In this document: positions 39,607 to 59,826 of the stretch, piece by piece | How the letters are laid out: each line of letters begins with the position of its first letter | Position numbering within the stretch: position 1 is the first letter of the stretch | DNA from: an uncultured Pseudomonadota bacterium | GTDB lineage: Bacteria > Pseudomonadota > Alphaproteobacteria > RF32 > CAG-239 | Reading direction: 5' to 3' | Length of the DNA: 64,000 bases | NCBI GenBank assembly: GCA_949295935.1 | Contig: CASFMW010000011.1 | Coordinates: forward strand, 6,822-70,821 | The notes under the pieces: model-generated | Databases searched by the model: none | Told to the model about the DNA's origin: nothing | The model's input: the letters and a program-made list of their open reading frames with translations, nothing else | Position numbers and translations under genes: made by a program

Positions 39607-39720
39607 TTACAAAAATAAGAAGTCTTGACATTTGAAAAATTATTATAGATAATCCCCTTAAAAGTGAATTTATGCCAACTTGTCCCACTTTAACCAAACG
39701 GACTAAACAGGAGAAATATA

Positions 39721-40203
39721 ATGACAGCCAGATTTTATATTCAGGCCCCTACGCCTGATAAGCAAGTGTTGCAAGCATTGTTTGATAACTTAGACTTATT
39801 GCAACAGCATCAAGATTTAGTTTTATCTAATTCTAAATATTACAATATTCATATCCAAGGTAGCGGTGTTTTTGCCTCATTTATTCAAGGATTTTCTTTG
39901 TGCTTGGGAGAACTGTTGCTTTTGTGGCAGCACACACCTTGGAAACAGGACAATAGCTACTTTTATTGCATTACCGGTAGCATTCTTTCAGGAATCAATA
40001 CATCAAGATATTGGAGCAAAGAACAAGGTCTAGCTAACAAATATACGCCAACCTTCGGCAAACAAATCAGCTCGGCAGTATTCGTCCGCCGAACCGGTAG
40101 CCCGATTTATGATGAACATAAACCGACACCGGTTTCCGTTCCCAAGCTTCAAGCCTCAGATATGACTATCTTTGAACTGATTGAAGAATTAAAACAAATC
40201 TAA
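39721..40203 (+). CDS. hypothetical protein (160 aa)
   Basis: ORF preceded by GGAGA. No recognisable domain. Confidence 0.5.
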   Translation: MTARFYIQAPTPDKQVLQALFDNLDLLQQHQDLVLSNSKYYNIHIQGSGVFASFIQGFSLCLGELLLLWQHTPWKQDNSYFYCITGSILSGINTSRYWSKEQGLANKYTPTFGKQISSAVFVRRTGSPIYDEHKPTPVSVPKLQASDMTIFELIEELKQI

Positions 40204-40483
40204 CAAGAAAGCATAGATTCACTTTTTAGCTATATCCTACAAACATGAGTTATAAAAAATACCCTTTATTAATAATGTAATAGCAAATCAACTAACCACA
40301 ACACAACAATATATTAAATATAACACCAAGCTCATAAAAAAATAATTGAAAAGCTATACAATAAAAAAATAAAATACTTTATTAATATCAAAAATAACTT
40401 TTATTTGATTTGAAAAAGAAATAATTTGCATATGTCAGAAATTGTCATACAATTACTTTACCTTAATAGTAGGAGAAGTAATC

Positions 40484-41431
40484 ATGGCATACGAAAAGAC
40501 ATACGATTTACTTGATTTAGCCGTCTGGATGCAGTCAAACCGTGAAGGTGTCAGCTTAAAAGATATTGCTGAGAAATATCAAGTTTCGCGCCGCACGGCG
40601 GAGCGTATGCGTGATATGATTATAACTCGATTTCCGCAAACAGAAGAAATTATTTGCGAAAACAATCAAAAACGCTGGTACATTCCGCAAGGAACATTAA
40701 AGGATTTGATAAACTTTTCCGCCGAAGAATTATCGGTGTTAGAAACAGCTAAAGAGTTGTTTGAAAATAAGCAAATGATCGAAAAACAGTTTGTTCTTGA
40801 TAAAGTTATAGCAAAAATTAAAGCTTGTATAAAACCGGATGTAATCAGACGGATTGAGCCCGATACCGAAGCCTTGCTTGAAGCAGAAGGTTTTATTTGC
40901 CGCCCTGGACCAAAGCTTGTTATAGATGAAAAGATTATCGCTACGATTCGCCAAGCCATTTTGGAATGTCGGCAGATTAAAATTAAATATTATAATAAGA
41001 ATAGCGGAAAAATTAGTACCAATACACTTAACCCTTATGGTTTTCTTTATGGTGAGCGCAATCACTACTTAGTTGCACATCATGCCGATGGTTATTTTGG
41101 TAATGAAGTTCATAACTTTATTTTGAGCAATATTCGAGAAGTGGCAATATTAGATAGTGTAATCGTAAATTTACCAAATTTTAGCTTGCAAAAATATGCT
41201 GAAGAGTCTTTTGGTGCTTATCACGAAGAGCCTTTCGAAGTTGAATGGTTGTTTGATAAAGAAGTATCAGAAGAAGCCTCTCACTATATTTTTCATCCCA
41301 CACAAGCCATGATAAAAAATCCGGACGGAACATTAACCGTTAAATTCAGAGCCGGTGGCAAATTAGAAATGGATTGGCATCTCTACACATGGGGCAATCA
41401 TGTAAAAGTCATCAAACCGGAGAATTGGTAA
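40484..41431 (+). CDS. WYL-domain transcriptional regulator (BrxR/CapW/PafBC-like: wHTH + WYL + WCX)
   Basis: N-terminal HTH (SLKDIAEKYQVSRRTAERMRDMI). WYL-type core (IKIKYYNKNS...LNPYGFLY..HYLVAHH...FILSNIREV). C-terminal WCX-like segment (FHPTQ...GNHVKVIKPENW). ATG 40484 has AGGAGA 8 nt upstream. Confidence 0.8.
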   Translation: MAYEKTYDLLDLAVWMQSNREGVSLKDIAEKYQVSRRTAERMRDMIITRFPQTEEIICENNQKRWYIPQGTLKDLINFSAEELSVLETAKELFENKQMIEKQFVLDKVIAKIKACIKPDVIRRIEPDTEALLEAEGFICRPGPKLVIDEKIIATIRQAILECRQIKIKYYNKNSGKISTNTLNPYGFLYGERNHYLVAHHADGYFGNEVHNFILSNIREVAILDSVIVNLPNFSLQKYAEESFGAYHEEPFEVEWLFDKEVSEEASHYIFHPTQAMIKNPDGTLTVKFRAGGKLEMDWHLYTWGNHVKVIKPENW

Positions 41432-41509
41432 AAATAAATATCATTAAGCAAGTGTTTAGTATTTGACTCATTTTGTTTTTTGTATTATTAATTCTGTTCA
41501 TGGAAGAAT

Positions 41510-42834
41510 ATAAAAATATCATATCGTTAGACAACACAACTCCGGATAAAGCTCATATCGGAGGAGGAAAATTTGTTGGCTTAGCACAAATCAAACCATT
41601 ATTGGCAAAATACAAAGAACAATATGGTGTTGATTTTGACTTGCCCAAAACTTTTGCAATAACAACAGATGCTTTTAAGAAATATGATATTGCCCATAAT
41701 GGCATACCTGAGGATGTTATTAACCAAGCCATGCAATGCATGGTAGCTTGCGGAGGGAATGTTGCGGTTCGTTCTTCTGCGGATATAGAAGATTTATCAG
41801 GCAAAACACATAGCGGCGAGTTTGAATCGGTTTTATCCGTTAAAAACAAACAACAAATTATAGCGGCATTACAAAAGGTATATCAGTCAGCGCAAAATGT
41901 TAACGGCGCTCAAATGGGGGTGATTATTCAACCCATGATAGATACACCTACGATGGCGGGAGTCCTTTATTCTCAGGATTTTAACGGTGACCCTTTAGTC
42001 GCAATTAACTGGACACAAGGTAAGCCGGCTAATTTTTTGTTAGTTAATAAAGAACAAGGCAATTTAACTAAAATCAGTAAATATGTTCGAACAGATGATG
42101 GTTATAAATTGTTTGAATTTCCTGATATAAAGACAAGGAATAGCCATAATATCCTGCATTCTGCCTTTGATAACTGTATGGGAATGGTTCCTGTAAAGTG
42201 TTTACAAGACCGGAATATGCAATATATTACGCAGTTAACAGCTTTAGCTAATCATCTTGAAAAAGATTTGGGCTATCCTGTCGATGTGGAATTTGCAATA
42301 TCAAAAAATGGTAAAATTTCTGTTTTGCAACAACGGCCCTATATTATGAATAATAACTATGTGGTAAAACAGTTAGAAAACGGAGATTTAGTCGGATATA
42401 ATAAAAACAATCCTATTGTCGCCGGTGAAGTTAAGATAGTTGATTATTTTATATCCACTGAAGAATTTAAACGAGCAAAAGAAAATAAAGATTTTGCAAA
42501 TAAAATATTATTATCCAAAAACGCTCGCAGAAATGATAGTTTTGCAATATTGGCCTGTGTCGATAGTGATGAAAATGTTTTGCAATCAAAATTAAAAATA
42601 GATGCGTGTTACAGAATACATTCCGAGCTTTACGGACATTATGGCAACCAATTTAGAGAAAGAGGCACGCCTTTTTTCTCAACACAAAGAAATGCTGAAT
42701 TTCAACATGTCAAAGACGGTGATTGGCTCAAAATCGATTTACGAACCGGAACCTTTAAAACATTCCCACAAAAAGATAAATCATTTAATATTGCCAATGT
42801 CGTTCAAATGCTTCAAAACTGCCATTATAAATAA
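41510..42834 (+). CDS. PEP-utilising-family phosphotransferase: PPDK_N ATP-grasp + swivel phospho-His-like domain, no recognisable substrate domain
   Basis: IGGGKFVGL, VAVRSSADIEDLSGKTHSGEF, MGVIIQPMI, VDVEFAISKNGKISVLQQRPY (PPDK_N). Then ILLSKNARRND..ELYGHYGNQFRERGTPF..VKDGDWLKIDLRTGTF (mobile His domain pattern). ATG 41510 is preferred over TTG 41473. Confidence 0.7.
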
Positions 42835-42866
42835 ATTCCACAGTAAAAATTTCCTCTTGCGTAAGT

Positions 42867-43583
42867 TTATTTCTTTTTGACAGTTTTATTGCCAATAGGT
42901 GTGTCTTGCTGCGCTGCGATTGATGGAGAATTGTCAAAACCATTTTTGACTTCATGAACCCCTTTTGCAAAACAATACAAGGAAGCAAGTACAGAAAAAA
43001 TACAAAGTAATCTAAAAAAATCTCCAATTTTTTGTGCGGCTATTTCCTTCTGCTTTTCTATGAAAATTTTCATATTAGTATCTTGAATACAATCATCGAT
43101 TCTATTAAGTTGTGTATCTATAAATTCCTGATTATCAGATTTCCGTTCACTACAAACAAAAAGTTTTTCTTCATCATATTTATTATTGCGCAATTTTAAC
43201 ATACTCTGTTGATTTATACTTGCAGAATGATTTTGATAAAAGGTTTGAGCTACATATGCTAATAAAATACATATTACTGCACACATTGCTCCATAGGAAA
43301 AATGTGTCACAGAATTCAATAGAGGTTCATACATATTTTGTATCTTTAAGGAAGTTGAGGTAAACAATGTTAACACGGTAACCGCAGCAGACCCATTTAA
43401 AAGAAAAATGGCTTTTATCCCCATTTTTGCAAAATCGATAACATGCTGTAACATAGTAAAATCATGATTGTCAAATTGTTGTTCCGCCATAAATAATTCT
43501 TGATTTTGTTTATTTAACAAAGTTGAAATATTACTTGCAAACTCTCTTTTATCTTGTCCATTCATATCAATATACTCCTGCAA
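42867..43583 (-). CDS. three-TM membrane protein (238 aa)
   Basis: Hydrophobic helices at about residues 55-75, 95-115 and 195-215. Convergent with the phosphotransferase gene. No known domain. Confidence 0.5.
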   Translation of the reverse strand: MQEYIDMNGQDKREFASNISTLLNKQNQELFMAEQQFDNHDFTMLQHVIDFAKMGIKAIFLLNGSAAVTVLTLFTSTSLKIQNMYEPLLNSVTHFSYGAMCAVICILLAYVAQTFYQNHSASINQQSMLKLRNNKYDEEKLFVCSERKSDNQEFIDTQLNRIDDCIQDTNMKIFIEKQKEIAAQKIGDFFRLLCIFSVLASLYCFAKGVHEVKNGFDNSPSIAAQQDTPIGNKTVKKK

Positions 43584-43776
43584 AATACTTAAAATGTTTT
43601 TTCTTTACCATAATGGTTATAACATGTTACAAAATACGAGTTAAAGAAATTATAGCTAGATTTTAGCGTTTAATCATCAATCTATGCAAGAGTAATAAGA
43701 TTGCTTAATAGTTTTTTTGTGTGTGTTTGTTTAAGCTGAAATTATATAAAATATCTTCTAATAGTGAGACTATAGT

Positions 43777-43791
43777 GGGACAAATTGTCCC
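43777..43791. repeat. perfect 7-1-7 palindrome GGGACAA-A-TTGTCCC
   Basis: Read directly from the sequence. Possible protein-binding site next to the att-like fragment. Confidence 0.5.
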
Positions 43792-43800
43792 GCAGAGGCA

Positions 43801-43834
43801 AAAGAAAAAGGCTTTGAGAATTTTCTCAAAGCCT
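43801..43834 (-). terminator. rho-independent terminator immediately after the tRNA-fMet 3' fragment
   Basis: aggctttgag/ctcaaagcct 10-bp stem followed by tttttcttt on the minus strand. Confidence 0.7.
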
Positions 43835-43845
43835 TGGTTTCTAAG

Positions 43846-43862
43846 TGGTTGCGGGGGCAGGA
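43846..43862 (-). other. 17-nt tRNA-fMet 3'-end fragment (att-like direct repeat)
   Basis: The minus strand reads TCCTGCCCCCGCAACCA (T-stem 3' strand, acceptor CCCCGCA, ACCA). The flanking sequence is not tRNA-like. Confidence 0.55.
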
Positions 43863-44027
43863 CGCTCAACCACAATACACACTAACATATTGAAAAATAT
43901 TAAATTTATTCTAAAAATAGCCCCATATTTTTTGGTTGGTGTGATACATAGTTTGGCACCTTATACCCCTTCATTTTAGATACGTCAAGAGCAAATTTAC
44001 AATATTAAAATTCCCTAATTACAAAAT

Positions 44028-44266: not shown

Positions 44267-44677
44267 ATGAAAATATTTATGACATTTAACCCACATATTG
44301 AAAATTTATCACAAAGAAATTTAATGATAAATTTTAGAAAATCACTTCAAAAATATTACAGGAAAACACTAGGGTCTCGTTATTTCAAACACAAAGACAA
44401 ACAATATCAAATAGGTGTGTTTCAAGAAGTAGGGGCTAGGGACTTCAAACAACCACATTTACATATCATTATTGATTTACCACTAAACAAGGTCAAAGAA
44501 CTACACCACTTTTTAAGCAATGAGCTTAAAAACATTTATTCATCATTAACCACAGATTGCCAAATTATCAAATCTGGCAAATATGACGAGCAAAATGTTT
44601 ATTTTTATTGCCTTAAAGAAGGGCAATCTATCACAACAAATTCAGACCTATATTTGCCAATTACAGATTTTAATTGA
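44267..44677 (+). CDS. HUH-endonuclease-like Rep protein (short, 136 aa; YagK/YfjJ-inovirus Gp2-like)
   Basis: Motif order FMTFNP (I), PHLHIIID (HUH, II), YFYCLKEG (YxxK, III). Confidence 0.45.
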   Translation: MKIFMTFNPHIENLSQRNLMINFRKSLQKYYRKTLGSRYFKHKDKQYQIGVFQEVGARDFKQPHLHIIIDLPLNKVKELHHFLSNELKNIYSSLTTDCQIIKSGKYDEQNVYFYCLKEGQSITTNSDLYLPITDFN

Positions 44678-44681
44678 TAAA
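44670..44681 (+). repeat. 12-mer TTAATTGATAAA, copy 2 of 3
   Basis: Exact copy spanning the stop of the Rep-like ORF, 20 nt upstream of the next ATG. Confidence 0.6.
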
Positions 44682-44700
44682 TACCTAAAAAGGAGAATAA

Positions 44701-45174
44701 ATGAATTTAGAGAAAACCGTAATAAATGACCGTATAGCAGCACTAATGAAAGATAATAAGGCAATCAACAACAAATTAAAATATACCTCACCAGAGAGCT
44801 TTAAAAAGGCATTAAAAGATAAAAAAGCTAAAAACAATGACGAATTACGCAAAGAAAGAACAAAACGCTATACTTTAGAGCAAGAAGAAGATGCCGAATT
44901 TATTAAAGAATGTTGCCAATATTTGCAAAAATTAGGCATAGTAAAAAGCCAAAGGCAATTCAGCCAACAATTTTTAAGTAAAAGCCAAGATTATTTAGGT
45001 GTAATAATCTGTGAAAAAAGACAACCACCGATTAACCTATTACATCGCCTTGTTCAAAATCTTATTCAAATTCAGCCAATTTATGAAGACAAATACACCA
45101 TCAGCAATTATTTAGATACCTTAATTAACAAGGGTAATCAAATAATCACTCAAAGATTACTAAAATATCTATAA
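44701..45174 (+). CDS. hypothetical protein (157 aa)
   Basis: AGGAGA Shine-Dalgarno. Lys-rich N-terminus. No recognisable domain. Confidence 0.5.
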   Translation: MNLEKTVINDRIAALMKDNKAINNKLKYTSPESFKKALKDKKAKNNDELRKERTKRYTLEQEEDAEFIKECCQYLQKLGIVKSQRQFSQQFLSKSQDYLGVIICEKRQPPINLLHRLVQNLIQIQPIYEDKYTISNYLDTLINKGNQIITQRLLKYL

Positions 45175-46404: not shown

Positions 46405-47001
46405 ATGATTTACGCATATATTAGAATATCAACTGACTTACAACATCAAGAAAACCAAAAATTTGAAATAGAAAATTTTGCTAAAACAAATAATATCAAT
46501 ATTGATAAATGGATTATGGAAACAATATCATCAAAAAAACCATTAGAAGAACGAAAATTAGGAAAAATATTAAAAAAATTAAAACAAGATGATATTTTAA
46601 TAACTTCTGAAATTTCAAGATTAGGCAGAAATTTATTACAAATTATGTATATACTTCATCACTGTATGAATGTTGGTTGTCAGATATGGACGATTAAAGA
46701 TAATTATAGATTGGGAACAGATATACAGTCGAAGGTATTGGCTTTTGCTTTTGGATTAAGTGCTGAAATAGAAAGAGATTTAATATCTCAAAGAACTAAA
46801 CAATGTTTAGCAAGATTAAAAGCTGATGGAAAACATATAGGACGACCAATAGGAAGAAAAAATAAAATAACTAAATTATCAGGAAAAGAAGATTTAATTG
46901 ATAAATTATTATCACAAAACATCAAAAAAACTAAAATTGCTAAAATGCTAAATGTAGATTATTCAACATTTTATAAATTCTTAAAACAAAAGGCGGTATA
47001 A
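46405..47001 (+). CDS. serine recombinase (resolvase/invertase family)
   Basis: N-terminal YIRISTDLQ catalytic Ser motif, SRLGRN, ERDLISQRT, C-terminal HTH. Confidence 0.88.
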   Translation: MIYAYIRISTDLQHQENQKFEIENFAKTNNINIDKWIMETISSKKPLEERKLGKILKKLKQDDILITSEISRLGRNLLQIMYILHHCMNVGCQIWTIKDNYRLGTDIQSKVLAFAFGLSAEIERDLISQRTKQCLARLKADGKHIGRPIGRKNKITKLSGKEDLIDKLLSQNIKKTKIAKMLNVDYSTFYKFLKQKAV

Positions 47002-47016
47002 ATCCGCCTTATTTTT
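46984..47016. terminator. bidirectional terminator shared by the convergent recombinase genes
   Basis: aaggcgg-tataaat-ccgcctt. Both stop codons lie inside or adjacent to the hairpin. Confidence 0.75.
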
Positions 47017-47557
47017 CTATATAGCTATATACAGTTGGTCTTGTTATTTCAAATTTTCTCGCAATTTCAGCAACGGCAACACCATTTTTATATAAATTGT
47101 TTAATTCTATTACTTGTTCATCAGATAATTTATTTTTACCACCTTTATATTTTCCTTTCGCTTTTGCCAATGCTACACCTTCTCTAACTCTATCATTGAT
47201 TAAAGAACGCTCCAAAGAACTAACCGCAGCCAACATTGTCATCATCATTTCTTGATAAGGGTCTTTTTTATCCAGTGAGAAAGTTAAATTTTCTTTATGA
47301 AATTTAATTGTTGCTCCAATATTGTTTATTTCTTCAACAATATTTAATAAATCACGAGTATTTCTTGCTAATCTATCCATAGAATGAACATTAACAACAT
47401 CACCGGCACGCAAATTTGACAACATCGCTTCTAATTGAGGACGCTCTCTATTTTTACCAGACAATTTATCTTCATATTCCCTATCACAAGGAACATCAAT
47501 TAACTGTCTTTCAGTAGATTGGATTAAAGTTGAAACTCTTTTATAGTTAAAAATCAT
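47009..47557 (-). CDS. serine recombinase (resolvase-like, 182 aa)
   Basis: YKRVSTLIQ, DRLARN, ERSLINDRVREG, C-terminal HTH (VAEIARKFEITRPTVYSY). Confidence 0.9.
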   Translation of the reverse strand: MIFNYKRVSTLIQSTERQLIDVPCDREYEDKLSGKNRERPQLEAMLSNLRAGDVVNVHSMDRLARNTRDLLNIVEEINNIGATIKFHKENLTFSLDKKDPYQEMMMTMLAAVSSLERSLINDRVREGVALAKAKGKYKGGKNKLSDEQVIELNNLYKNGVAVAEIARKFEITRPTVYSYIEK

Positions 47558-47574: not shown

Positions 47575-47693
47575 TGTAAAATCAATATCTTTAATATGAC
47601 TTTACATTACATAAAAAGTGTAAAATTGTCAAGTATTTTATGTTGGATTTTACACTTTTTTATAATTAAATTTGATTATAGTTTGATTTTACA
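47575..47693. promoter_or_regulatory. res-like cluster of four TGTAAAAT/ATTTTACA half-sites upstream of the resolvase gene
   Basis: TGTAAAAT at 47575 and 47619. ATTTTACA at 47647 and 47686. The inner pair extends to a 9-bp inverted repeat with a 20-bp spacer. Confidence 0.45.
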
Positions 47694-48326: not shown

Positions 48327-48353
48327 AAGGGGGATAAATTCCCCCTTATTTTT
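48327..48353. terminator. bidirectional terminator
   Basis: aaggggg-ataaatt-ccccctt followed by attttt. Overlaps the integrase stop codon. Confidence 0.75.
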
Positions 48354-50112
48354 CATTTAATTTCTTTATTTCTTCTAAATTTTTATCTAAAAATGGATAT
48401 TGCAATTTGCAAATTTCTTGATAAAGCACCTTAATTGGAATTTCACCACCATACACACGCTCCCCTATATCACTGGCAGACCAACCGCAAATAGCATTTT
48501 GATACTCTTGCGAAATACCAGCATCTCTTAAATATGGTTTTACAGTATGGCGGAACGAGTGAAATACCTTATTTCTTCCTTCAATTTTTAATCCTTTTAG
48601 ATAACGAGCAAACCACATACTCATAGCATGAGTATAATGATTTTTGGAGCTATACTCAAATTGATAAAATAATCTATCTTTTTTTGCTTCTCTAATGCTT
48701 TTTACAAAGTCAATAAAACCTAATTCTATCAATTTGGGATGTATAGGAACTAATCTTTTTGATTGTTTATTTTTTAGACTTTGGTCTGACCGCTCATTCG
48801 TTAATCTAAAATACCAAATACGATTTAAATACTTAACATCATCAACATATAACTGACAAATCTCATTTAGTCGCATACCTGTATATATCCCAATTAGAGG
48901 AATCCAATACCGCCACGCATAATATATACTATTTTTAGGCGGATAAAATGACGGATTAAAAATATTTTGTAATTCTTCACGATTAAACGCATCAATTTTT
49001 ATAGGGTCTCTCCTCTTTGGAACTTCAATATCATCACTAAAACTTTCCGGAATAAATCTTCTCTTTTTACAATATAAAAGGAACTCCTTAAATGTCCGCA
49101 AATACTTATTGACCGATGTAATTGATATTCTATTTGTTGTTTCTGTTTTTAACAACTCTCTTAATTCTTCTGGCTTATATTTCTCATTCCAACGCTTAGG
49201 AAGTTTATACATTAGCAAAGATAATTTTTGACAATCTTGATAAGTAACATTTTCAATATATTGCTTATCTAATATTGAAAAAGCGGTATAAAGACACAAC
49301 TCATTTTCTTTAATTGAATTTTCACTAATTTTATTATTGCGTTTCTTCTCCGCAAAATCCTTAAATACTCTCTTCCATGGTGTTTGGGTGTTGCTGGATT
49401 TTATTGCCTTTGTATTCTTTGCTAATTCAATAGCAGCAATACACCTTTTAACTCTCTGGTTAATTCCCACAACATCTTCTCCGTTCTGAATGGCGATGGT
49501 GTTCTTATCGATATAGGCATCAACCCCCTTCAAAACTTTTTTAGTATCAATGACCCATTGGCTTATTTTTTCGGGATGAGAAATAATTTTAATATCCTCG
49601 CTATCCAACCGCCCAATCATTTTTACCGTTTGTATTGGCGAACGTTTATCTCGCTTTAAATCGTTAAAATATTCACGAATATACAATTCGACACACTTCA
49701 ACTCTGGTGTAATTGGCGATTGTATAGTTTGTTGTTTTGCCTTATCTAATTTTTCTGGTGAAAATACTTTAACATCATCAAGCTTAAAGGAACCATCAGC
49801 AATATCTTCATAGTTATTTTCAAAAAGTTTTTCGACCTCTTCCAATTTATGAATCACAAGCTTGTCGATATCTGTATCGTCAAGAAATAACTCACCATTT
49901 TTGATTTTCATGTCAATAGCCCTTAACAAATTGATTTTCATATCAATTTTATAGCTTTCTTTTCGCACTTTTTCAAGGGCTTCATAGTAGTTATGCGTTC
50001 TTAATGAATAATTGAACTGAACAGATTTCGCTAAATATACCAATGCTGACGGTATTCTGGCTCTAATGTAGTAAGTGGTGTTTCGCCTAACGAGTCGTGT
50101 ATGCCCATTCAT
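48346..50112 (-). CDS. large tyrosine recombinase/integrase (DUF6538-like N-terminus)
   Basis: N-terminal RRNTTYYIRARIPSAL. C-terminal catalytic region with RLNE, HSFRHT and a terminal Tyr region. Start taken at MNGHTR, with GAGAGG 8 nt upstream; the track ORF extends to 50151. Confidence 0.85.
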   Translation of the reverse strand: MNGHTRLVRRNTTYYIRARIPSALVYLAKSVQFNYSLRTHNYYEALEKVRKESYKIDMKINLLRAIDMKIKNGELFLDDTDIDKLVIHKLEEVEKLFENNYEDIADGSFKLDDVKVFSPEKLDKAKQQTIQSPITPELKCVELYIREYFNDLKRDKRSPIQTVKMIGRLDSEDIKIISHPEKISQWVIDTKKVLKGVDAYIDKNTIAIQNGEDVVGINQRVKRCIAAIELAKNTKAIKSSNTQTPWKRVFKDFAEKKRNNKISENSIKENELCLYTAFSILDKQYIENVTYQDCQKLSLLMYKLPKRWNEKYKPEELRELLKTETTNRISITSVNKYLRTFKEFLLYCKKRRFIPESFSDDIEVPKRRDPIKIDAFNREELQNIFNPSFYPPKNSIYYAWRYWIPLIGIYTGMRLNEICQLYVDDVKYLNRIWYFRLTNERSDQSLKNKQSKRLVPIHPKLIELGFIDFVKSIREAKKDRLFYQFEYSSKNHYTHAMSMWFARYLKGLKIEGRNKVFHSFRHTVKPYLRDAGISQEYQNAICGWSASDIGERVYGGEIPIKVLYQEICKLQYPFLDKNLEEIKKLNEK

Positions 50113-50194
50113 CTTATCGCCTCTCTCTTGTGATACAGGGCTGTGATACACTTGCCGGCAATGCCAAAATAGCGTTTTTAGAATAAAAAAATAA

Positions 50195-50437: not shown

Positions 50438-51595
50438 ATGGAAAGCAATAAATTTAAATTCACAAAGAGTAATATTGAAAAATTACAGCCTAGTAACAAA
50501 CGCAGTTACTATTACGATACTGCTGAACCTAATCTTGTGCTCCAAGTAACCCCTAACGGAACTAAAACATACTATGTATATAAAAGAATACAAGGTAGGC
50601 CTGTCAGAACATATCTAGGCACAACAGATATTTTGACTCCCGAGATGGCAAGAATAAAGGCAAATGAAGTTAAAGTATCAATTAACAAAGGTGAAAATCC
50701 TCATAAACAAAGCACCAAATACAATGAAAATACAACTTTACAACAACTTTTTGATGATTTTGTAAAAGAACGTGAGCGTTTTATTGGTGAGCGGACAATG
50801 GTTGGTTATAAAAGTATGTGGAACACTAAAATATCCAAGCTTGCTAAAAGAAGATTAAGCGATATTTCCGGAGATGATTTGAAAATCTTACACCGTAAAA
50901 TATCTGAAAACTTTGGAAACTACACTGGTAATCATTGTCTGGTTTTAATCAAAACCGTTTATAACTACGCAATTAAAGAAGAGCGATTTGATGGGAGAAA
51001 TCCTGCAATATCCGTAAAATTAAACAAAACGGAACCTAGAGTAAGATATATGGAACATGCCGAACTTCAAAGATTCTTTGCCGTTTTGGATGAATATGAT
51101 AATGAAATCTCCCGAGACGCAATTTTAATGCTCATCTATACGGGAGCTCGCAAAAGAAACGTTTTGGAGATGAAATGGGCAGATATTGATATGGAAGCAA
51201 AAATCTGGAAAATTCCTCAAACCAAAACCGCCAAAAACGTAACTATAGCCCTAGTTGAACCGGCTATGGAAGTTTTACAAAGGCGTTGGAAGCAAGCTGA
51301 AAACGAATGGGTATTTTATTCTCCGACATCAAAATCAGGTCATGTGGAAGATATAAAGCGAGCCTGGGCAAGTATATTAGAAAAAGCTCAAATCACCAAT
51401 TTAAGAATTCACGATTTACGCCATACACTTGCTACCTATTTGATTGCCAACGGAGCAGATGCCTTTATCGTTCAAAGAGCTTTAACTCATAAAAGCCTTC
51501 AAAGCACGCAAGTTTATGTAAATTTGGGTGTTGAACATTTGCGGGATAAATTAAACGATACCGTTAATAAAATGCTGAATATTGGTAAAAAGTAG
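50438..51595 (+). CDS. P4-type tyrosine integrase (DUF4102 arm-binding N-terminus)
   Basis: N-terminal YYYDTAEPNLVLQVTPNGTKTYYVYKR. Catalytic region GARKRN, HDLRHT, ..TQVYV. Confidence 0.9.
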   Translation: MESNKFKFTKSNIEKLQPSNKRSYYYDTAEPNLVLQVTPNGTKTYYVYKRIQGRPVRTYLGTTDILTPEMARIKANEVKVSINKGENPHKQSTKYNENTTLQQLFDDFVKERERFIGERTMVGYKSMWNTKISKLAKRRLSDISGDDLKILHRKISENFGNYTGNHCLVLIKTVYNYAIKEERFDGRNPAISVKLNKTEPRVRYMEHAELQRFFAVLDEYDNEISRDAILMLIYTGARKRNVLEMKWADIDMEAKIWKIPQTKTAKNVTIALVEPAMEVLQRRWKQAENEWVFYSPTSKSGHVEDIKRAWASILEKAQITNLRIHDLRHTLATYLIANGADAFIVQRALTHKSLQSTQVYVNLGVEHLRDKLNDTVNKMLNIGKK

Positions 51596-51736
51596 CAAAA
51601 AATGACTTTGTTGTCCATTTCTAGAGGCAATATCACAGATATGGAATATCAAATCATCTCTAATGTTGTAAAACAACAAAGAAAACATTGAAAATAGTCG
51701 AATATATTTATAATATTGAGTCGGAGATGTAAGATA

Positions 51737-52405
51737 ATGCCACAAATACCGGAACAGATACTTTTATTTCATTTTACTGCTATTAGTAATCTTGATAGCA
51801 TATTTAGGTGTGGTTGCTTAAAAAGTTATAATATACTAGCTCAAGAAGGACAACTCTATACAAATATAGCATATGCAAGTGTCCAAGAAAAAAGGCATCT
51901 TAAATTAGTCCCAAATACAAATACAAATTTGCATGATTATGTTCCTTTTATGTTTGCTCCCCGCTCTCCAATGCTTTATACTCTAATTAACGGCAATGTT
52001 GAAGAAGCTCAGGAAAATAAGCAAGAAAATATAATCTATTTTGTAACCGACTTTAATACCGTTTCTGATTTAGACTATGTTTTTACTGACTATCATGCTA
52101 TTTTAGAATATGCAGGATATTATACAAAACCTCAAGATTTTGATAAAATTCAATGGCAATTGTTTTTTGAGCCACCTTTATTAGGAGGATATTGTAAATA
52201 TTTTCAGAGTAACATGAAAAAAACTGAATATGCTAAAAGGAAAGAAGCTCGTGAAGCAGAATTTTTAATAAAAAATAAAATAAATCTTGAAAAAATATTG
52301 TATATTGCAGTATTTAATGAAGAAACTCAAAGACTTGTTGAACAAAAATTAAGATTTTTAGGATTAAATATAAGTGTTCAGATAAAAAGAGATTGGTATT
52401 TTTGA
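51737..52405 (+). CDS. darT: DarT-like DNA ADP-ribosyltransferase toxin (DUF4433)
   Basis: LLFHFTAISNLDSI N-terminal motif, YVPFMFAPRSPMLY, and REAEFLIKN (catalytic Glu context). GGAGA Shine-Dalgarno 9 nt upstream of the ATG. Confidence 0.8.
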   Translation: MPQIPEQILLFHFTAISNLDSIFRCGCLKSYNILAQEGQLYTNIAYASVQEKRHLKLVPNTNTNLHDYVPFMFAPRSPMLYTLINGNVEEAQENKQENIIYFVTDFNTVSDLDYVFTDYHAILEYAGYYTKPQDFDKIQWQLFFEPPLLGGYCKYFQSNMKKTEYAKRKEAREAEFLIKNKINLEKILYIAVFNEETQRLVEQKLRFLGLNISVQIKRDWYF

Positions 52406-53427
52406 TGATATATTTTGAAAAAAATAAAAACATATTTGAAAGAGAAGTTGATGCCATCATCAACACGGTTAATTGTGTCGGCGTCATGGGAAAAGGTATC
52501 GCTCTTCAATTTAAACAACTGTATCCAGATAACTTCAAACAATATAAAAAAGCCTGCGATAAAAAAGAGATTATTCCGGGGAAAATGTTTGTATATGATA
52601 ATGGTTTTTTGAACAAACCCAATTATATTATAAACTTCCCAACAAAAAATCATTGGCGAGAAAAATCTAAGATAGAATATATTACGACAGGTCTAAATGA
52701 TTTATGTAAGGTCATAGAAAAGCTGAAAATAAAATCTATTTCCATTCCTCCGCTTGGTTGTGGAAACGGTGGTCTTGATTGGAATATTGTAAAAAAATAT
52801 ATTGTAGAGAAATTAAGTCAATACAGTGATATTGATTGCTATATTTACGAACCTACAAATAACTTTACTAATATACAAAATAAAGAAAAAGCTACACTCA
52901 CATCATTTAGAGCAGTCTTTCTAAAATCAATACAGATATATAATGATGCCTTGTATGAACTCAGCAGCATAGAAATTCAAAAATTAGTTTATTTTATAAA
53001 TTTGCTAATGAAAAACGGCAAATTAAAATACACTAAAGCCCCTTATGGGCCATTCTGTGCAAATTTACACAATGCAATAGATAATCTATCTGGATACTAT
53101 ATCACAGGATTAAAAGATGGCACGGAAGTAAATCACATAAAATTATGTGATGGAATTCTCTCTGAAGTAGATGATTTTATTGCCAAATCAACAGAAAATT
53201 TATCCCAATATATTGAAAAAATAAAACAAATTATTAGTGGATTTGAAACACCCTTTGGTATGGAGCTTTTGGGAACCGTTCATTGGGTTGTTGCACAAGA
53301 AGGTGCAAGAAATATTGATGAAACAATAATAAAAGTTCATAACTGGAACGACCGAAAAAAACAATTAATGTCACCTCAAGACATTACAATAGCATATAAT
53401 CATCTTAAAATGTGCGGACTAATATAA
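52405..53427 (+). CDS. darG: DarG-like macrodomain antitoxin
   Basis: N-terminal macrodomain (VDAIINTVNCVGVMGKGIALQFK ... IPPLGCGNGGLDW) plus a C-terminal extension. The start overlaps the darT stop (TGATG). Confidence 0.8.
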   Translation: MIYFEKNKNIFEREVDAIINTVNCVGVMGKGIALQFKQLYPDNFKQYKKACDKKEIIPGKMFVYDNGFLNKPNYIINFPTKNHWREKSKIEYITTGLNDLCKVIEKLKIKSISIPPLGCGNGGLDWNIVKKYIVEKLSQYSDIDCYIYEPTNNFTNIQNKEKATLTSFRAVFLKSIQIYNDALYELSSIEIQKLVYFINLLMKNGKLKYTKAPYGPFCANLHNAIDNLSGYYITGLKDGTEVNHIKLCDGILSEVDDFIAKSTENLSQYIEKIKQIISGFETPFGMELLGTVHWVVAQEGARNIDETIIKVHNWNDRKKQLMSPQDITIAYNHLKMCGLI

Positions 53428-53446: not shown

Positions 53447-54394
53447 ATGGCAAAGCTATATAACGAAGATAAACATTGTGATTTAGACTTGTTTTACAGC
53501 AAGAAGACAGCCTTTTTTGACAATATTGATTTTTCGCAAGCTTCACCGGAAGAAATTAACAAAATAATGAATTTGGCAATTTCTGAGATTTTCTTTGATG
53601 ATTGTATATTTACAAATTTGAACCTTAGCAATAAAAAATTCTTTAGAAAAATAACTTTTAATAAATGTTTATTCAAAGGAAATACAAATTTCTCCAATAG
53701 TCAATTTGAGGATTTTATAAGCTTTGACCGTTCAACTTTTGACGGGATAACCAAGTTTAATGATACGGTTTTTAATGCCGGAGTAAGCTTTGTTGAAATT
53801 CATACAAAACCAGCTCGTGGTGGCTATTTCTACTACCGCGGAGATGGTATTGATTACAGTAAATACCCCAAATATTATGAAAATGTTTTGGATTTTTCAG
53901 GAGCGAAGTTTGAAACCGAAGTTTCATTTTTCGGTCGCCGCTTTTTTGAAGACACCTCATTTAGTCGTGCCACATTTTATAACAAATTCTGGTTTTCAGA
54001 ATGCAATATCGGCTTAAAAACCAATTTTAACGCCAATTTTGCTTGTGATGGTATTAAAAATATTGATATGTGCTACCGCATTTTGAAGGATGTATTAAGC
54101 AAAGAGGGATATTCAATTCAAGCTCGCACGATTGAACGTTTGGAACAAAAAATTATAGATAAACAAAACAAAGATGATTTACTGCCCTCTCCGACCAAGC
54201 CCAATACACCTAACAAACACAATTCTGATTTACTGACAACGGCTGAGGCCGCTGAGTATCTGGGCTTAAAAATCAACACATTGGAACGTTGGCGTAGTCA
54301 ATTCCCCAATCGATTACCCTTTGTAAAAATCGGCAGAACCGTAAAATACCGCTTGGAAGACTTACAAGCATACATCAGCAAGAATATAAAATAA
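53447..54394 (+). CDS. pentapeptide-repeat domain fused to an excisionase-family HTH
   Basis: N-terminal run of pentapeptide-like repeats (CIFTNLNLSNKKFFRKITFNKCLFKGNTNFSNSQFEDFISFDRSTFDGITKFNDTVF..). C-terminal LLTTAEAAEYLGLKINTLERWRSQ..PFVKIGRTVKYRLEDLQAYI. Confidence 0.7.
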   Translation: MAKLYNEDKHCDLDLFYSKKTAFFDNIDFSQASPEEINKIMNLAISEIFFDDCIFTNLNLSNKKFFRKITFNKCLFKGNTNFSNSQFEDFISFDRSTFDGITKFNDTVFNAGVSFVEIHTKPARGGYFYYRGDGIDYSKYPKYYENVLDFSGAKFETEVSFFGRRFFEDTSFSRATFYNKFWFSECNIGLKTNFNANFACDGIKNIDMCYRILKDVLSKEGYSIQARTIERLEQKIIDKQNKDDLLPSPTKPNTPNKHNSDLLTTAEAAEYLGLKINTLERWRSQFPNRLPFVKIGRTVKYRLEDLQAYISKNIK

Positions 54395-54494: not shown

Positions 54495-56612
54495 ATGACA
54501 AAAAAAACTAATATCAATCAAAATTTTGATAACCAAGATTGGTGGAAGACTGCTACTTTAGAAGATGTCTTAAACGAAATATCAAAAGGAGCAGATTTAA
54601 ATCATTTTTCTAAAGGTCTTTTTATGCAAAACTCATTTAGTTACGCCATGAGGAACAAGACTAAAGAAAGGTTTGAAATATTGAAGACTCTTGTAAAAAA
54701 AGGGGCTGAATTCGAGCATGAGCTTCCTGATTTGTTTGCATATTATTCTATTGATGAAGCTATATATTTTTTAGAACAAGCAAGTCCCATAGAAACATAT
54801 GTATTAAACAGTATCTTCTGTTATCTAATACAGTATAATCGTATAGAACCTTTAAAATATATATTAAATCGCTATCAAGACATAATTTTTACTTTAGAAG
54901 AAACGTATAAACTTGCACGTATTAAAGACAAAGATATTATATCCATCTTTTTAAACAAAGTTATTATACCGCATAAAGAGGAGCTCAATCTTATTACTAC
55001 CATTGTGTCTGAGGCGTGTAAGCAAGAAAACGCAACTTTATTAAATGTCTTATTAGATAAAGTATTTACTAGCAAATTTCCTGAAAATATATGCGATAAT
55101 ATACTGACATCCAATGCTCTAAATAGAGAACTAATTCTCAAATTTCTGGAAAAAGGTGTTGATAAAAATTTAAAAGACAGCCATGGGAGAACATTATTAA
55201 ACCAGCTTACCAATATCTATTGTCAAAGATTTAACCCCGAAGAAACATCTCTTAAATTAATAAAAGAAGACATCCTTTATTGGATTGATTATGGCATGGA
55301 TGTTAATATACCCTGTAACAACGGTAGCACACCTCTATTAAACATGTGTTCTGCAACGGTTCCGTCATTAGAAATTATATCAAAGTTGATTTCCAAAGGA
55401 GCTGATGTTAATGTTAAAAGGAAGGATTATGTCAAAATTAAATTATCTGAATTATACAGAGCCGCACCTACTGATAACGATACACCTTTGTATAATGCCA
55501 TTGATAAAAGTGCAAATACTGAGTTGATACACTTATTATTAGATTCTGGGGCTAACGTTAATGCTTACGACAGAAACAATGATGTATCTATTATTGATAT
55601 TGCAATAAAGAGAGAATGTAACACCGAAACGATAGATAAAATATTAAAATCTGGTATTAATGACTATTATAAAAAACGCGGTTTTTTAAGACTTATAAGA
55701 CAAGGTGGTTCTTTTGATATTTTTAATGTTTTCATTAACAATGGAATTGATATAAATGAAAAATTCACTGGATACGTTGAATGGGTGTGGTGGTGCAAAG
55801 ATTATACTCCATTAATGATGGCTTGTTACTGTGGTAATTTAGATTATGTAAAATTATTAATAGATTTAGGAGCAGACACTAATGTCAAAGATGAAAAAGG
55901 AAGGTCATTATTGTCTATTGCTTGCCTGGCCACATTTCCAGAACCATCTTTAATAGAATTTTTAATAAAATTAGGCTTTGACGTTAATGAACAAGATGAT
56001 GAAGGAAATACACCGTTAATGATAAGCTATCAAAATGGAGACCTCGCTAGTATTTTCAATGTGTTAATTAAAAATGGAGCAGATATCAATAAAAGAAATC
56101 ATAATGGGGATAATATTTTATTAGTCAAATATTATCCGATTAATTCTCGAACAAATATCGATAGGGTTTGTGTAAAACATGGTGCCGATGTAACAGTCGT
56201 AAATAATAATGGGAAAAAGGTAAATGAATATTATATTTCATTACATGAAGAATTATTTGATACCGTTATTGACAGAAAAAAAATAGATAAAGAAGTTGAA
56301 AATAAATTGAAAAACAAAGAAGCAAAACAAAACTCAAAAATTAATACCCCCAACCTTTTTAAGAATAAAGTTGTTTGTTTTGCAGGATTTAAAAACAAAA
56401 AGCTATCTGATTATATCAAAAGTCATGGTGGCAAGTATGTTACTTCTTTAATTGATGACTGTAATCTGCTAATCAGAAAGCATCAATATCGGGGAACAAC
56501 TAGTGAAGATTCCTTAGTTAGAGAAGCAATTGAAAAAGTAATTAAGACAGAACCACTTTGTGAAATTGAAAATAAAATACAAGAATATGGAGACATAGAA
56601 CAATTGCGTTAG
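54495..56612 (+). CDS. ankyrin-repeat protein with C-terminal BRCT-like domain (705 aa)
   Basis: Multiple ANK units (G.TPL..A......i..LL..GADVN pattern, e.g. DEGNTPLMISYQNGDLASIFNVLIKNGADIN). C-terminal NKVVCFAGFKNKKLSDYIKSHGGKYVTSLIDDCNLLI resembles the LigA-type BRCT. Confidence 0.75.
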   Translation: MTKKTNINQNFDNQDWWKTATLEDVLNEISKGADLNHFSKGLFMQNSFSYAMRNKTKERFEILKTLVKKGAEFEHELPDLFAYYSIDEAIYFLEQASPIETYVLNSIFCYLIQYNRIEPLKYILNRYQDIIFTLEETYKLARIKDKDIISIFLNKVIIPHKEELNLITTIVSEACKQENATLLNVLLDKVFTSKFPENICDNILTSNALNRELILKFLEKGVDKNLKDSHGRTLLNQLTNIYCQRFNPEETSLKLIKEDILYWIDYGMDVNIPCNNGSTPLLNMCSATVPSLEIISKLISKGADVNVKRKDYVKIKLSELYRAAPTDNDTPLYNAIDKSANTELIHLLLDSGANVNAYDRNNDVSIIDIAIKRECNTETIDKILKSGINDYYKKRGFLRLIRQGGSFDIFNVFINNGIDINEKFTGYVEWVWWCKDYTPLMMACYCGNLDYVKLLIDLGADTNVKDEKGRSLLSIACLATFPEPSLIEFLIKLGFDVNEQDDEGNTPLMISYQNGDLASIFNVLIKNGADINKRNHNGDNILLVKYYPINSRTNIDRVCVKHGADVTVVNNNGKKVNEYYISLHEELFDTVIDRKKIDKEVENKLKNKEAKQNSKINTPNLFKNKVVCFAGFKNKKLSDYIKSHGGKYVTSLIDDCNLLIRKHQYRGTTSEDSLVREAIEKVIKTEPLCEIENKIQEYGDIEQLR

Positions 56613-56751: not shown

Positions 56752-58461
56752 ATGTCTATAAACGGAAATATCAATCAAAAAGCAAATTTAATCTGGTCAA
56801 TAGCTGATGTTTTGACCGGAACATATAAACCTCATGAATATGGCGAAGTTATTTTGCCAATGATGGTTATTAAGCGTTTTGATTGTATTTTGGAAGACAC
56901 CAAGGAAGCTGTATTGAAAAAATTGCCTGAAGTTAGCAATTTACCGATGAAAGATATCTTTCTAAAAAAGGCAAGCGGACATCCGTTTTACAATACAAGT
57001 AAATTTAATTTCAAACGATTATTAGACGCTCCTGACAGTATTGAAATAAATTTCCGTTCATATTTGAATGATTTTTCCGATAATGTAAAAGATATTTTAG
57101 AGCATTTTGAATTTGAACGCCATATTGAAAGATTAGCTTCGCATGATTTGCTTTATATGATTATAAAAAAGTTTAGCACTCCTGACGCTGATTTACACCC
57201 CTCAAAAATTAGCAACTTGGAAATGGGATATATTTTTGAAGAAATTATTCGCCGCTTTTCAGAAGCTCATAACGAAGATGCTGGACAACACTATACCCCA
57301 AGAGAAGTCATAGAACTTATGGTTAATATACTTTTCAATAATGATAATAGCATATTGACCGGAAATGTTGCAAAAACACTATATGACCCAACCGTAGGAA
57401 CGGGCGGAATGCTTTCCGTTGCGGAAGAATATCTTTCAAGACTAAACAAAAATGCAAAGCTTATTTGTTATGGACAAGAGATAAATGACCAAACCTTTGC
57501 TATTTGCAAAGGAGATATGCTCATTAAAGGAAATGATGCAAACAACATTAAATGCGGCAATACATTATCTGATGACCAATTTGCAGATGATAAGTTTGAT
57601 TATATATTATCGAATCCGCCTTTTGGTAGAGAATGGAAAAATGATAAAAACGCCGTGGAAAAAGAAGCAAAATTGGGGTTTGCTGGGCGTTTTGGTGCCG
57701 GATTACCGCCTATTAGCGATGGACAAATGCTCTTTTTGCAAACAGCAATCCACAAAATGAGACCGGAAGGTTCAAAAGTTGCTATTATTCAAAATGGTTC
57801 TCCGTTATTTAGTGGTGATGCCGGAAGCGGACAATCAGAAATACGCAAATATATATTGGAAAACGATTTGTTAGAAGCTATCGTTGCTCTACCTAATGAT
57901 TTGTTTTATAATACCGGCATTGCAACCTATATTTGGGTATTTAACAACAAAAAGCCTGTGGAAAGAAAAGGCAAGGTTCAACTTATAAATGCCAATGGAT
58001 TATATGAAAAACGCCGTAAATCATTAGGAAATAAGAGAAACGACATTCCGCAAAAGTATATAGATAAAATTACACAAATTTACGGAGATTTCAAAGAAAA
58101 TGAAATTAGCAAGATTTTTAATAACGAAGACTTTGGTTATGCAAAAATTGTAGTTGAACGCCCGCAAAGGGATGAAAATGGCGAAATTATCTTGAAAAAA
58201 GGTAAGCCGATAGCGGATTCTGAATTAAGAGATACAGAAAACGTGCCTTTAACAGAAGATATTCATGAATATTTTCAGCGAGAAGTTATTCCTTTTGCTC
58301 CGGATGCATGGATAGATGAAAGCAAAACTAAAATTGGCTATGAAATTCCATTTACAAGATATTTTTACAAATATGTTCCACCTCGCCCATCTGATGAGGT
58401 TTTGTCAGAAATTATGACTTTACAAAAAGATTTGGAACAAACCTTGAAAGGATTGTTTTAA
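56752..58461 (+). CDS. hsdM: type I restriction-modification methyltransferase subunit HsdM
   Basis: HsdM N-domain (LWSIADVLTG), SAM motif DPTVGTGGML, catalytic NPPFG. Confidence 0.95.
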   Translation: MSINGNINQKANLIWSIADVLTGTYKPHEYGEVILPMMVIKRFDCILEDTKEAVLKKLPEVSNLPMKDIFLKKASGHPFYNTSKFNFKRLLDAPDSIEINFRSYLNDFSDNVKDILEHFEFERHIERLASHDLLYMIIKKFSTPDADLHPSKISNLEMGYIFEEIIRRFSEAHNEDAGQHYTPREVIELMVNILFNNDNSILTGNVAKTLYDPTVGTGGMLSVAEEYLSRLNKNAKLICYGQEINDQTFAICKGDMLIKGNDANNIKCGNTLSDDQFADDKFDYILSNPPFGREWKNDKNAVEKEAKLGFAGRFGAGLPPISDGQMLFLQTAIHKMRPEGSKVAIIQNGSPLFSGDAGSGQSEIRKYILENDLLEAIVALPNDLFYNTGIATYIWVFNNKKPVERKGKVQLINANGLYEKRRKSLGNKRNDIPQKYIDKITQIYGDFKENEISKIFNNEDFGYAKIVVERPQRDENGEIILKKGKPIADSELRDTENVPLTEDIHEYFQREVIPFAPDAWIDESKTKIGYEIPFTRYFYKYVPPRPSDEVLSEIMTLQKDLEQTLKGLF

Positions 58462-58462
58462 G

Positions 58463-59825: not shown

Positions 59826-59826
59826 G

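Follow-up and report, generated by a model that had tools for sequence, protein, structure and literature searches.

The 64,000-nucleotide (nt) stretch of contig CASFMW010000011.1 analysed here (assembly GCA_949295935.1, from an uncultured alphaproteobacterium of the CAG-239 lineage; hereafter the window, within which all coordinates are given) contains, at 40484-43583, a gene for a regulator with winged helix-turn-helix, WYL and WCX domains (wHTH-WYL-WCX), a same-strand gene for a small enzyme related to phosphoenolpyruvate (PEP) synthase and rifampin phosphotransferase (RPH), and a convergent gene for a protein with three transmembrane (TM) segments. A first-pass annotation of this piece had read it as a BrxR/CapW-like WYL regulator controlling a phosphotransferase, possibly in a defence context. 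Our analysis partly supports that interpretation: the domain calls were right, the idea of a conserved system was not, and the regulator is DriD-like. The explanation we favour, and hold to be moderately probable, is that a DriD-family regulator heads a slot for variable cargo genes, and that here the slot is occupied by an autonomous cassette encoding a minimal histidine dikinase (His-dikinase). Judging by its sequence, there is good reason to expect that the enzyme is an active His-dikinase; it is a minimal-architecture variant, new within a known superfamily.

The ATP-grasp domain of the enzyme is recognised by Pfam PPDK_N (PF01326) over residues 69-287 (E = 5.2e-25; 88.8 bits vs. a cut-off of 27), and the motifs quoted in the first-pass annotation (...SELYGHYGNQFRERGTPF...VKDGDWLKIDLRTGTF...) are contained in the sequence. 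NCBIfam equivalog models for PEP synthase, RPH and PigC-type proteins align with the ATP-grasp part only and score far under their cut-offs (47 bits vs. 739.75 for TIGR01418, 54 vs. 598 for NF005057 and 29.5 vs. 999 for RIF_Ptrans_rph, NF041857). A PEP-utilizers_C TIM barrel, or any further domain, is found neither by Pfam or NCBIfam nor in the AlphaFold2 model of all 444 residues, as had been noted for the TIM barrel and a substrate domain at first pass. With this model (pLDDT 87.8, pTM 0.84), the top Foldseek matches in the PDB are RPH (5fbs, 3.8e-16), PpsA (2ols) and PPDK (1kbl), with E-values of 1e-16 to 1e-12. The comparison with RPH, PpsA and PPDK that had been proposed in the annotation returns these three as the closest sequences and structures, at ~13-18% identity in the case of PpsA and PPDK. 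The grasp motifs GGGK24, AVR91SSA, D262xE264F and LQQ278R279P align to those of PpsA (2OLS) and RPH and are invariant among 47 homologues, together with G22, S92, S93, E97, D98, Q277 and P280; we take K24, R91, D262/E264, Q278 and R279 to be the equivalents of PPDK K22, R92, E323, Q335 and R337. The best viral structural match to the whole-enzyme model, from BFVD, is Gp139 of Bacillus phage G (G3MBK5, 365 aa; E = 1.9e-17, TM scores 0.53/0.63), a small phage-encoded PPDK_N-like protein.

The C-terminal domain is supported, by profile comparison and modelling, as a divergent phospho-His swivel domain. A hidden Markov model (HMM) of the family, built from 47 members, gives one continuous alignment from the ATP-grasp to the C-terminus with short PpsA-like proteins that are positive for PF00391. 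It puts LYGHyGNmlrE on the canonical ..TAHASIVSRE.. of those proteins, and ikeGDylridl.tGkf on their ..LKDGEIITVDGFRGKI. Alignment of residues 285-444 to a swivel-domain alignment with hhalign has a probability of 86% (E = 5e-6, 109 columns) and again places His380 on the catalytic His. The best Foldseek matches in the PDB for an AlphaFold2 model of the isolated domain (pLDDT 87.6) are RPH, the N-terminal part of phosphotransferase system (PTS) enzyme I and other swivelling beta/beta/alpha folds, with E-values of 2e-3 to 7e-3 and probabilities of at least 0.97. His380, G382 and N383 are invariant in 47/47 homologues, R386 and E387 nearly so. Together with PPDK_N, these results bear out the ATP-grasp plus swivel-His architecture read from the sequence at first pass.

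The enzyme family is small and narrowly distributed. A word-indexed search finds 53 homologue clusters (counted at 90% identity), nearly all of them full length at 410-480 aa. Only 35 of 1.84 billion representatives reach E≤1e-30 in a profile search, in which scores fall sharply to ATP-grasp-only matches under ~250 bits. Among species-representative genomes, the family is confined to metagenome-assembled genomes (MAGs) of gut and rumen Alphaproteobacteria, including Candidatus Enterousia, and is found in a minority of genomes only. Values of dN/dS between the enzyme and its relatives are 0.05-0.15; these low values and the invariance of the catalytic residues exclude a pseudogene or a decaying PpsA fragment. 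The housekeeping fragment that the first-pass annotation had itself considered is equally at odds with full-length homologues, invariant catalytic residues and a dN/dS of 0.14. Tblastn finds no match for the enzyme in 50,697 phage records. PLSDB plasmids contain no full-length homologue, the matches there being partial ones to the ATP-grasp of ordinary PpsA-like genes. PADLOC and PHROG have no match for the enzyme or the TM protein, in keeping with the earlier remark that no named defence system was known to have this enzyme. A literature search for PPDK_N or PEP-synthase-like proteins in phage defence found nothing relevant. Two longer members, P0016 (L024 5983-8133; 716 aa) and P0175 (786 aa), were considered as informative fusions and dropped, both being tandem duplications of the enzyme family; the second copy lacks the catalytic His and the QQRP motif and is a pseudo-enzyme half. 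Such tandem-duplicated members are a hint that the family acts as a dimer.

Conservation of the regulator-enzyme pair across genomes had been named in the first-pass annotation as a test of its proposal, and the pair turns out to be absent outside one ~94%-identical lineage. We fetched 36 enzyme-family loci, ~26 of them non-redundant, with identities of 34-92%; tblastn finds homologues of the WYL regulator, the TM protein or other window neighbours in none of the ~26. In the reverse direction, the enzyme or the TM protein occurs in 0/42 loci fetched through WYL homologues. All-against-all clustering of neighbours recovers shared synteny only among close relatives. A tally of 114 neighbouring genes by Pfam and PADLOC counts IF-2 and GNAT three times each and Sir2, Fic, HD and integrase twice each; no family is enriched, and matches to defence models are few, scattered and non-recurrent, so that the enrichment near defence genes for which a check had been proposed is not seen. 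HD-domain genes downstream in L003 and L011 were taken up as a lead and rejected because the two HD proteins do not share a cluster. The more distant members of the family show stable synteny with housekeeping genes, lying either behind nusA-infB or behind the rplO end of the ribosomal operon. We find the trio again only in two chicken-gut contigs (L133, L134) and in short contigs of another gut metagenome, as a block that is 93.7% identical over 40484-43732 and has flanks unrelated to those of the window. Relative to L133, the WYL and enzyme genes have ~92% nucleotide identity (dS 0.32 and 0.29), whereas the TM gene is 99% identical (dS 0.02). This uneven divergence makes the block a mosaic and points to recent exchange of the TM segment. 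The pairing is therefore not general: it is limited to one ~94%-identical lineage and is not a conserved system.

What does move is the enzyme gene by itself. Enzyme genes 88-90% identical to that of the window occur in at least three other contexts: adjoining a divergent gene for an outer-membrane protein (L005-L009), adjoining a DUF4143 ATPase gene (L012), and in a third setting (L135, L136). DNA homology to these copies opens at 41460-41463 and ends at the stop codon (42836). Because homology is limited to the ORF (open reading frame) and ~40 nt upstream of it, the enzyme gene behaves as a single-gene cassette. Its 5' edge has a -35-like TTGACT and a -10-like TATTAA/TATTAT only ~8 nt from the ATG, with no Shine-Dalgarno sequence upstream of that ATG, and the pattern TTGAYT...TATTAT is kept upstream of the gene in L005, L012, L133 and L135. 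The cassette thus probably carries its own promoter. In L133 (6405-6491) and in the contigs of run X2, a 12-nt insertion (TATTTGACAAAA) is found after window position 41459; relative to window 41429-41502, it duplicates the -35-like TTGAC at the cassette 5' edge. As the promoter-like 40 nt are present in every context, WYL control is probably not required for expression of the enzyme. Read-through from the WYL promoter is nevertheless possible in this lineage, given that the WYL stop codon and the enzyme ATG are only 68 nt apart, with no predicted terminator in that gap. Of the earlier proposal of a WYL-controlled enzyme, downstream control stays plausible in view of the same-strand cargo behind the regulator's homologues, and the necessity of such control probably falls away. 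That the WYL regulator affects enzyme expression in this lineage is, on these sequence features, conceivable but a little on the doubtful side.

The regulator itself belongs to a far larger family than the enzyme, with 836 homologues at E≤1e-10, and has a dN/dS of ~0.08-0.09. Pfam confirms the wHTH-WYL-WCX call made at first pass (WYL 4.5e-10, WCX 4.3e-6), with weak N-terminal matches to HTH_11/HTH_23. In a phmmer search of the PDB, residues 1-313 match Caulobacter DriD, an activator of a non-SOS DNA-damage response that senses single-stranded DNA (ssDNA). The entries are 9pfq/9pfv/9pga at 1.8e-50 and 8tp8 at 2.1e-50, the 9PF* entries being DriD (PMC13004042). At E≤0.01, the same search returned no structure of either BrxR or CapW. 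By sequence, the closest solved and characterised relative of the regulator is therefore DriD and not BrxR/CapW, to which the first-pass annotation had likened it.

A candidate operator is consistent with this relationship. The sole conserved block in an alignment upstream of nine WYL homologues is TAYGWC-N7-GWCRTA, and the predicted box in front of the window regulator is the only exact match to this consensus in the 64 kb; with one mismatch allowed, there are 3 matches in the window vs. 0.6 expected by chance. The box lies between a -35-like TTTGCA and a -10-like TACAAT, and shares half-sites and spacing with the Caulobacter didA site, ATACGAC-N7-GTCGCAA (PMC13004042). The strict Caulobacter DriD consensus, at up to 3 mismatches, has nothing near the locus and one chance-level match at 16982, for which reason the consensus from homologue promoters was used instead. 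The window scan with that consensus finds no DriD-type box in front of the enzyme gene. A second match with one mismatch (TATGACTTTACATTACATA), at 47595-47613 between a resolvase gene and an ORF at 47862, may be due to chance.

Homologues of the regulator are likewise followed by cargo genes, which vary from locus to locus. Close homologues share one chromosomal locus, with an AAA ATPase gene, a gene for a ~330-aa protein and a divergent MBL-fold gene upstream and, downstream, a variable same-strand position followed by psd-pssA-der (L094-L096, L133). The same-strand cargo in that position is a PDDEXK_4 protein (PADLOC PDC-S26) with a Cas4-like DUF2779 protein in L091-93, an 88-aa ORF with PDDEXK_4 in L094-97, type I HsdR and HsdM in L111 and L114, a McrB-like AAA_5 ATPase in L104 and a protein resembling uracil-DNA glycosylase (UDG) in L106; L098 is without a same-strand cargo gene, and in L133 and L134 the slot holds the enzyme and the TM protein. 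In L133, the trio fills exactly the WYL-psd slot that in L094 carries the 88-aa ORF and PDDEXK_4. The gaps between regulator homologues and their cargo are often tiny or overlapping.

How do these genes compare with systems that have been characterised? RPH (5FBS, 5HV1) is the best Foldseek match for both the whole model and the isolated domain; it, too, combines an ATP-grasp domain with a phospho-His swivel domain at the C-terminus, and the expected chemistry is the same, ATP being converted to AMP, Pi and a phosphorylated acceptor via a His intermediate. RPH is, however, ~860 aa long with a large rifampin-binding domain between the two, whereas in the enzyme they are fused directly, and the swivel motif is LYGH as opposed to ..GG..TSH. 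With PpsA and PPDK, the enzyme shares the order of the first two domains, the GGK, the Arg of V-R-S-S, the DxEF and the LQxR, and co-linearity of the family HMM through the catalytic His; unlike these core metabolic enzymes it is without the C-terminal PEP/pyruvate TIM barrel and is an accessory mobile cassette. The two-component phenolic dikinases HpeHI, CreHI and PpsAB (PMC12167813) belong to the same superfamily with domains repackaged across polypeptides, and HpeI (PDB 9GOJ) is among the Foldseek and sequence matches of the enzyme. In those systems the ATP-grasp stands alone (HpeI) and the swivel is fused to the substrate-binding domain (HpeH), while the window enzyme keeps the swivel with the ATP-grasp and has no substrate-binding module in or beside it.

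The regulator resembles DriD (8TP8, 9PFQ, 9PFV, 9PGA) over its full length (E ~2e-50) and in its wHTH/WYL/WCX architecture, and both proteins are from Alphaproteobacteria; the predicted operator, written as TAYGAC-N7-GTCRTA, has the half-sites and spacing of the Caulobacter ATACGAC-N7-GTCG... Whereas DriD, a global activator, leaves its own gene unregulated and works at promoters far from it (PMC13004042), the predicted box of the window is inside the regulator's own promoter and the cargo genes follow in the same orientation. This geometry is closer to that of BrxR and CapW, which repress defence systems and have the same wHTH-WYL-WCX architecture (PMC9122601, PMC11662680). The cargo headed by the regulator homologues is diverse and defence-like; the window regulator differs in having no BrxR/CapW structure match, and the cargo of the window is in no defence catalogue. 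Within the locus, PADLOC matches the WYL protein alone, and to generic WYL models.

If the enzyme is an active dikinase, ATP would be bound by the ATP-grasp domain through K24, R91, D262/E264 and Q278/R279. The beta-gamma pyrophosphoryl group would then pass to His380 of the swivel domain with release of AMP, the gamma-phosphate would be lost to water as Pi, and phospho-His380 would pass the beta-phosphate to an acceptor. With no acceptor domain in the enzyme and no conserved partner gene, that acceptor would have to bind the two-domain core, either as a small molecule docking at the grasp/swivel interface or as a macromolecule that brings its own binding surface. Expression would probably be driven by the short promoter of the cassette, to which read-through from the WYL promoter may add in the lineage of the window.

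Several points weigh against this picture of an autonomous, self-sufficient dikinase. To our knowledge, no superfamily member has been characterised that lacks an acceptor-binding domain or subunit, and a partner may therefore be encoded elsewhere in the genome. Pfam PF00391 misses the swivel domain in the C-terminal 144 aa even at E≤1, which is why the HMM, profile-profile and structural tests were used. The signature that precedes the His in the swivel loop of the superfamily, T/SxxGGxxxH (PMC12167813), is absent from the enzyme family, which instead has ..(D)x8 LYGHxGN, with no GG at -5/-4 and no conserved T or S at -8 from His380. A swivel domain that is under the Pfam threshold and lacks this signature does not guarantee competence for phosphotransfer. 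As to autonomy, the WYL and enzyme genes are adjacent and have co-diverged in two flanking contexts, as a functional pair would. Last, the sequencing runs that contain the stretch are DNA metagenomes only.

The strongest of the alternatives, which we nevertheless regard as unlikely, is that the enzyme is a WYL-controlled effector against phages or other mobile genetic elements: phage ssDNA or DNA damage would release or activate the WYL regulator and so induce the dikinase, which would block infection by phosphorylating a phage or host macromolecule or a nucleotide, or by burning ATP to AMP and 2 Pi. A defence role is made possible by the defence-like cargo behind regulator homologues, namely type I restriction-modification (R-M), PDDEXK_4/PDC-S26 with the Cas4-like protein, and the McrB-like AAA_5 ATPase, and the enzyme occupies the same slot in L133. 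In addition, the island in the window holds DarT-DarG, type I R-M genes, integrases and resolvases, Fic (PADLOC SoFic), DUF4143 ATPase (PDC-S01), NERD or integrase genes are found close to some of the nearer enzyme homologues, and defence genes typically behave as single-gene cassettes, as this one does. Against this, PADLOC and PHROG match neither the enzyme nor the TM protein, the WYL-enzyme pair is restricted to one lineage, only a handful of the 114 neighbours match defence models and none of them recurs, distant members are in housekeeping synteny (nusA-infB; rplO end), and the enzyme gene is preceded by its own promoter-like element instead of a DriD box. DriD-type regulators also govern DNA repair, which the PDDEXK, Cas4-like, UDG and MBL-nuclease neighbours would suit equally well. 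Taken on its own, a defence role for the enzyme thus seems improbable to us, most of the probability going to some other metabolic or physiological role. The narrower version of the idea is less probable again: a single-gene immune effector, induced by damage or phage via the DriD-type regulator, that acts by phosphorylation from phospho-His380 or as an ATP-to-AMP pyrophosphatase starving the infected cell. If true, it would constitute defence chemistry that has not yet been described.

Similarly poor prospects attach to an RPH-type resistance or detoxification kinase that inactivates a gut antibiotic or xenobiotic. Rifampin phosphotransferases are the best structural matches (5fbs at 3.8e-16; 5hv1, 5hv2), and in gut and rumen bacteria the family is an accessory one, patchily distributed and mobile; but the ~400-residue rifampin-binding domain is missing, the RIF_Ptrans_rph score (29.5 bits) is nowhere near the cut-off of 999, PLSDB plasmids have no full-length homologue, and the neighbour tally shows no resistance genes. 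Least credible by far is a split or degenerate PEP synthase/PPDK, in which the enzyme would be either the N-terminal two-thirds working with a separate TIM-barrel protein or a decaying fragment: the ATP-grasp-then-swivel order is that of PpsA/PPDK, the family HMM is co-linear with PpsA-like proteins through the swivel and metagenomes do hold short canonical proteins with PPDK_N and PEP-utilizers domains (P0235, P0287), but identity to PpsA/PPDK and the TIGR01418 score are very low, the motif around the His is non-canonical, the family moves as a cassette through a minority of genomes, and both versions were rejected on the grounds of conservation, of purifying selection over the full length, which rules out a pseudogene, and of the lack of a TIM-barrel gene adjoining the enzyme in the non-redundant loci examined.

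For the favoured reading, an autonomous dikinase cassette in a DriD-family cargo slot, the interest lies in two directions. An engine-only family under purifying selection raises the question of what a phospho-His carrier without an acceptor domain phosphorylates; it could be a protein, a polymer or a metabolite bound where the two domains meet, or there could be no acceptor, in which case ATP would be hydrolysed. Identification of the acceptor would widen the known range of dikinases. In uncultured gut Alphaproteobacteria, a variable slot behind a DriD-family regulator connects the Caulobacter damage activator with the island-heading arrangement of BrxR/CapW, and the slot offers a starting point for mining cargo genes. 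In practical terms the importance is modest: the family has few members in a narrow range of taxa, and so far no tie to defence or resistance.

The features of the locus are collected in Table 1.

Table 1 Features of the regulator-enzyme locus (L-numbers in the text are fetched loci or contigs, P-numbers homologue proteins).
Feature	Position	Strand	Basis or remark
DriD-type operator box (predicted)	40431..40449	no strand	TATGTC-N7-GTCATA, overlapping the predicted promoter of the WYL gene
DriD-family wHTH-WYL-WCX regulator, 315 aa	40484..41431	+	Pfam WYL/WCX, phmmer vs. PDB
5' edge of enzyme cassette, promoter-like element	41460..41499	+	homology edge to 88-90% identical copies
Minimal His-dikinase (predicted), 444 aa	41500..42834	+	ATP-grasp ~1-285, swivel ~285-425
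His380 codon (CAT), predicted phospho-carrier	42637..42639	+	motif LYGHyGNxxRE; conservation, alignments
Convergent 3-TM protein, ~232 aa	42867..43565	-	ORF reaches TTG at 43583

All three ORFs are present in the window. That of the enzyme opens at a TTG at 41473, and the ATG was chosen as the start because all homologues begin there; this replaces the 441 aa and the 78-nt gap of the first-pass annotation by 444 aa and 68 nt. The whole analysis is built on metagenome assemblies, which makes the integrity of the block important. In the source run, the WYL-enzyme-TM block is one unitig (40174-43928), and the three-gene adjacency is seen again in independent assemblies; the adjacency is for these two reasons not an assembly artefact, and is secure. 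The source run also has short separate unitigs at 39661-40158 and 43846-43928, with a depth 3-4x that of the flanks, and loose unitig ends at 39639, 39661 and 43846. These stretches, one at each border of the block, are either repeated or common to several strains. As the junctions between the block and its flanks run through these short, deeper unitigs, the long-range context of the window may be a mixed path, or one of several that the assembly could have taken.

The convergent protein does have the three hydrophobic segments described at first pass (residues 54-77, 91-117 and 186-210 by Kyte-Doolittle), and is probably initiated at ATG 43565, since its homologues are 232 aa long. Pfam, PADLOC, NCBIfam and PHROG all return nothing for it, its homologues form only six clusters, and the role of partner that the three-gene layout might suggest is not borne out. 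The single homologue whose surroundings were looked at, with 46% identity, belongs to a variable region that related genomes have on their ftsY/miaB side; its neighbours are Macro, DUF4143, Fic, HD and His_Phos_1 genes, and both the WYL regulator and the enzyme are missing from its vicinity. Accessory genes of a similar kind also surround several of the closer enzyme homologues; the TM protein draws on the same pool of accessory genes as the enzyme and is not its partner. This accessory neighbourhood, at an ftsY/miaB-like side, is recurrent in related gut Alphaproteobacteria (L137-L140, ~1-10.6 kb; L001, L002, L011, L012), and its genes encode Macro, AAA_14-DUF4143 ATPase, Fic, HD, His_Phos_1 and Bro-N proteins.

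From roughly 40 kb to the end of the window, the G+C content drops from ~40% to ~30%. Just past the TM gene, a small ORF faintly matching replication protein ORF2/G2P is followed by a protein with DUF6626/EAD9 (effector-associated domain) (44267-45174), possibly what is left of a small mobile element. A tail-to-tail pair of serine resolvase genes with 7 nt between them (46405-47001, + strand; 47009-47557, - strand) is followed by two tyrosine integrase genes (48346-50151, - strand, with DUF6538; 50438-51595, + strand); this region looks like a composite mobile or variable island adjoining ftsY. At 51716-53427, the overlapping same-strand ORFs for DarT (PF14487, 1.3e-48) and a macro-domain, DarG-like protein probably form a DarTG toxin-antitoxin/defence module. 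Type I R-M genes occupy 56752-62008, with hsdM at 56752-58461, hsdS at 60758-62008 and three unannotated ORFs with only faint PHROG matches between them (58463-60768); hsdR is not seen between these genes and the end of the window. Between the DarTG and R-M genes, a gene for a pentapeptide-repeat and HTH_17 protein (53447-54394) precedes one for a 705-aa protein (54495-56612) with ankyrin repeats and a C-terminal BRCT domain, an unusual combination for a bacterium.

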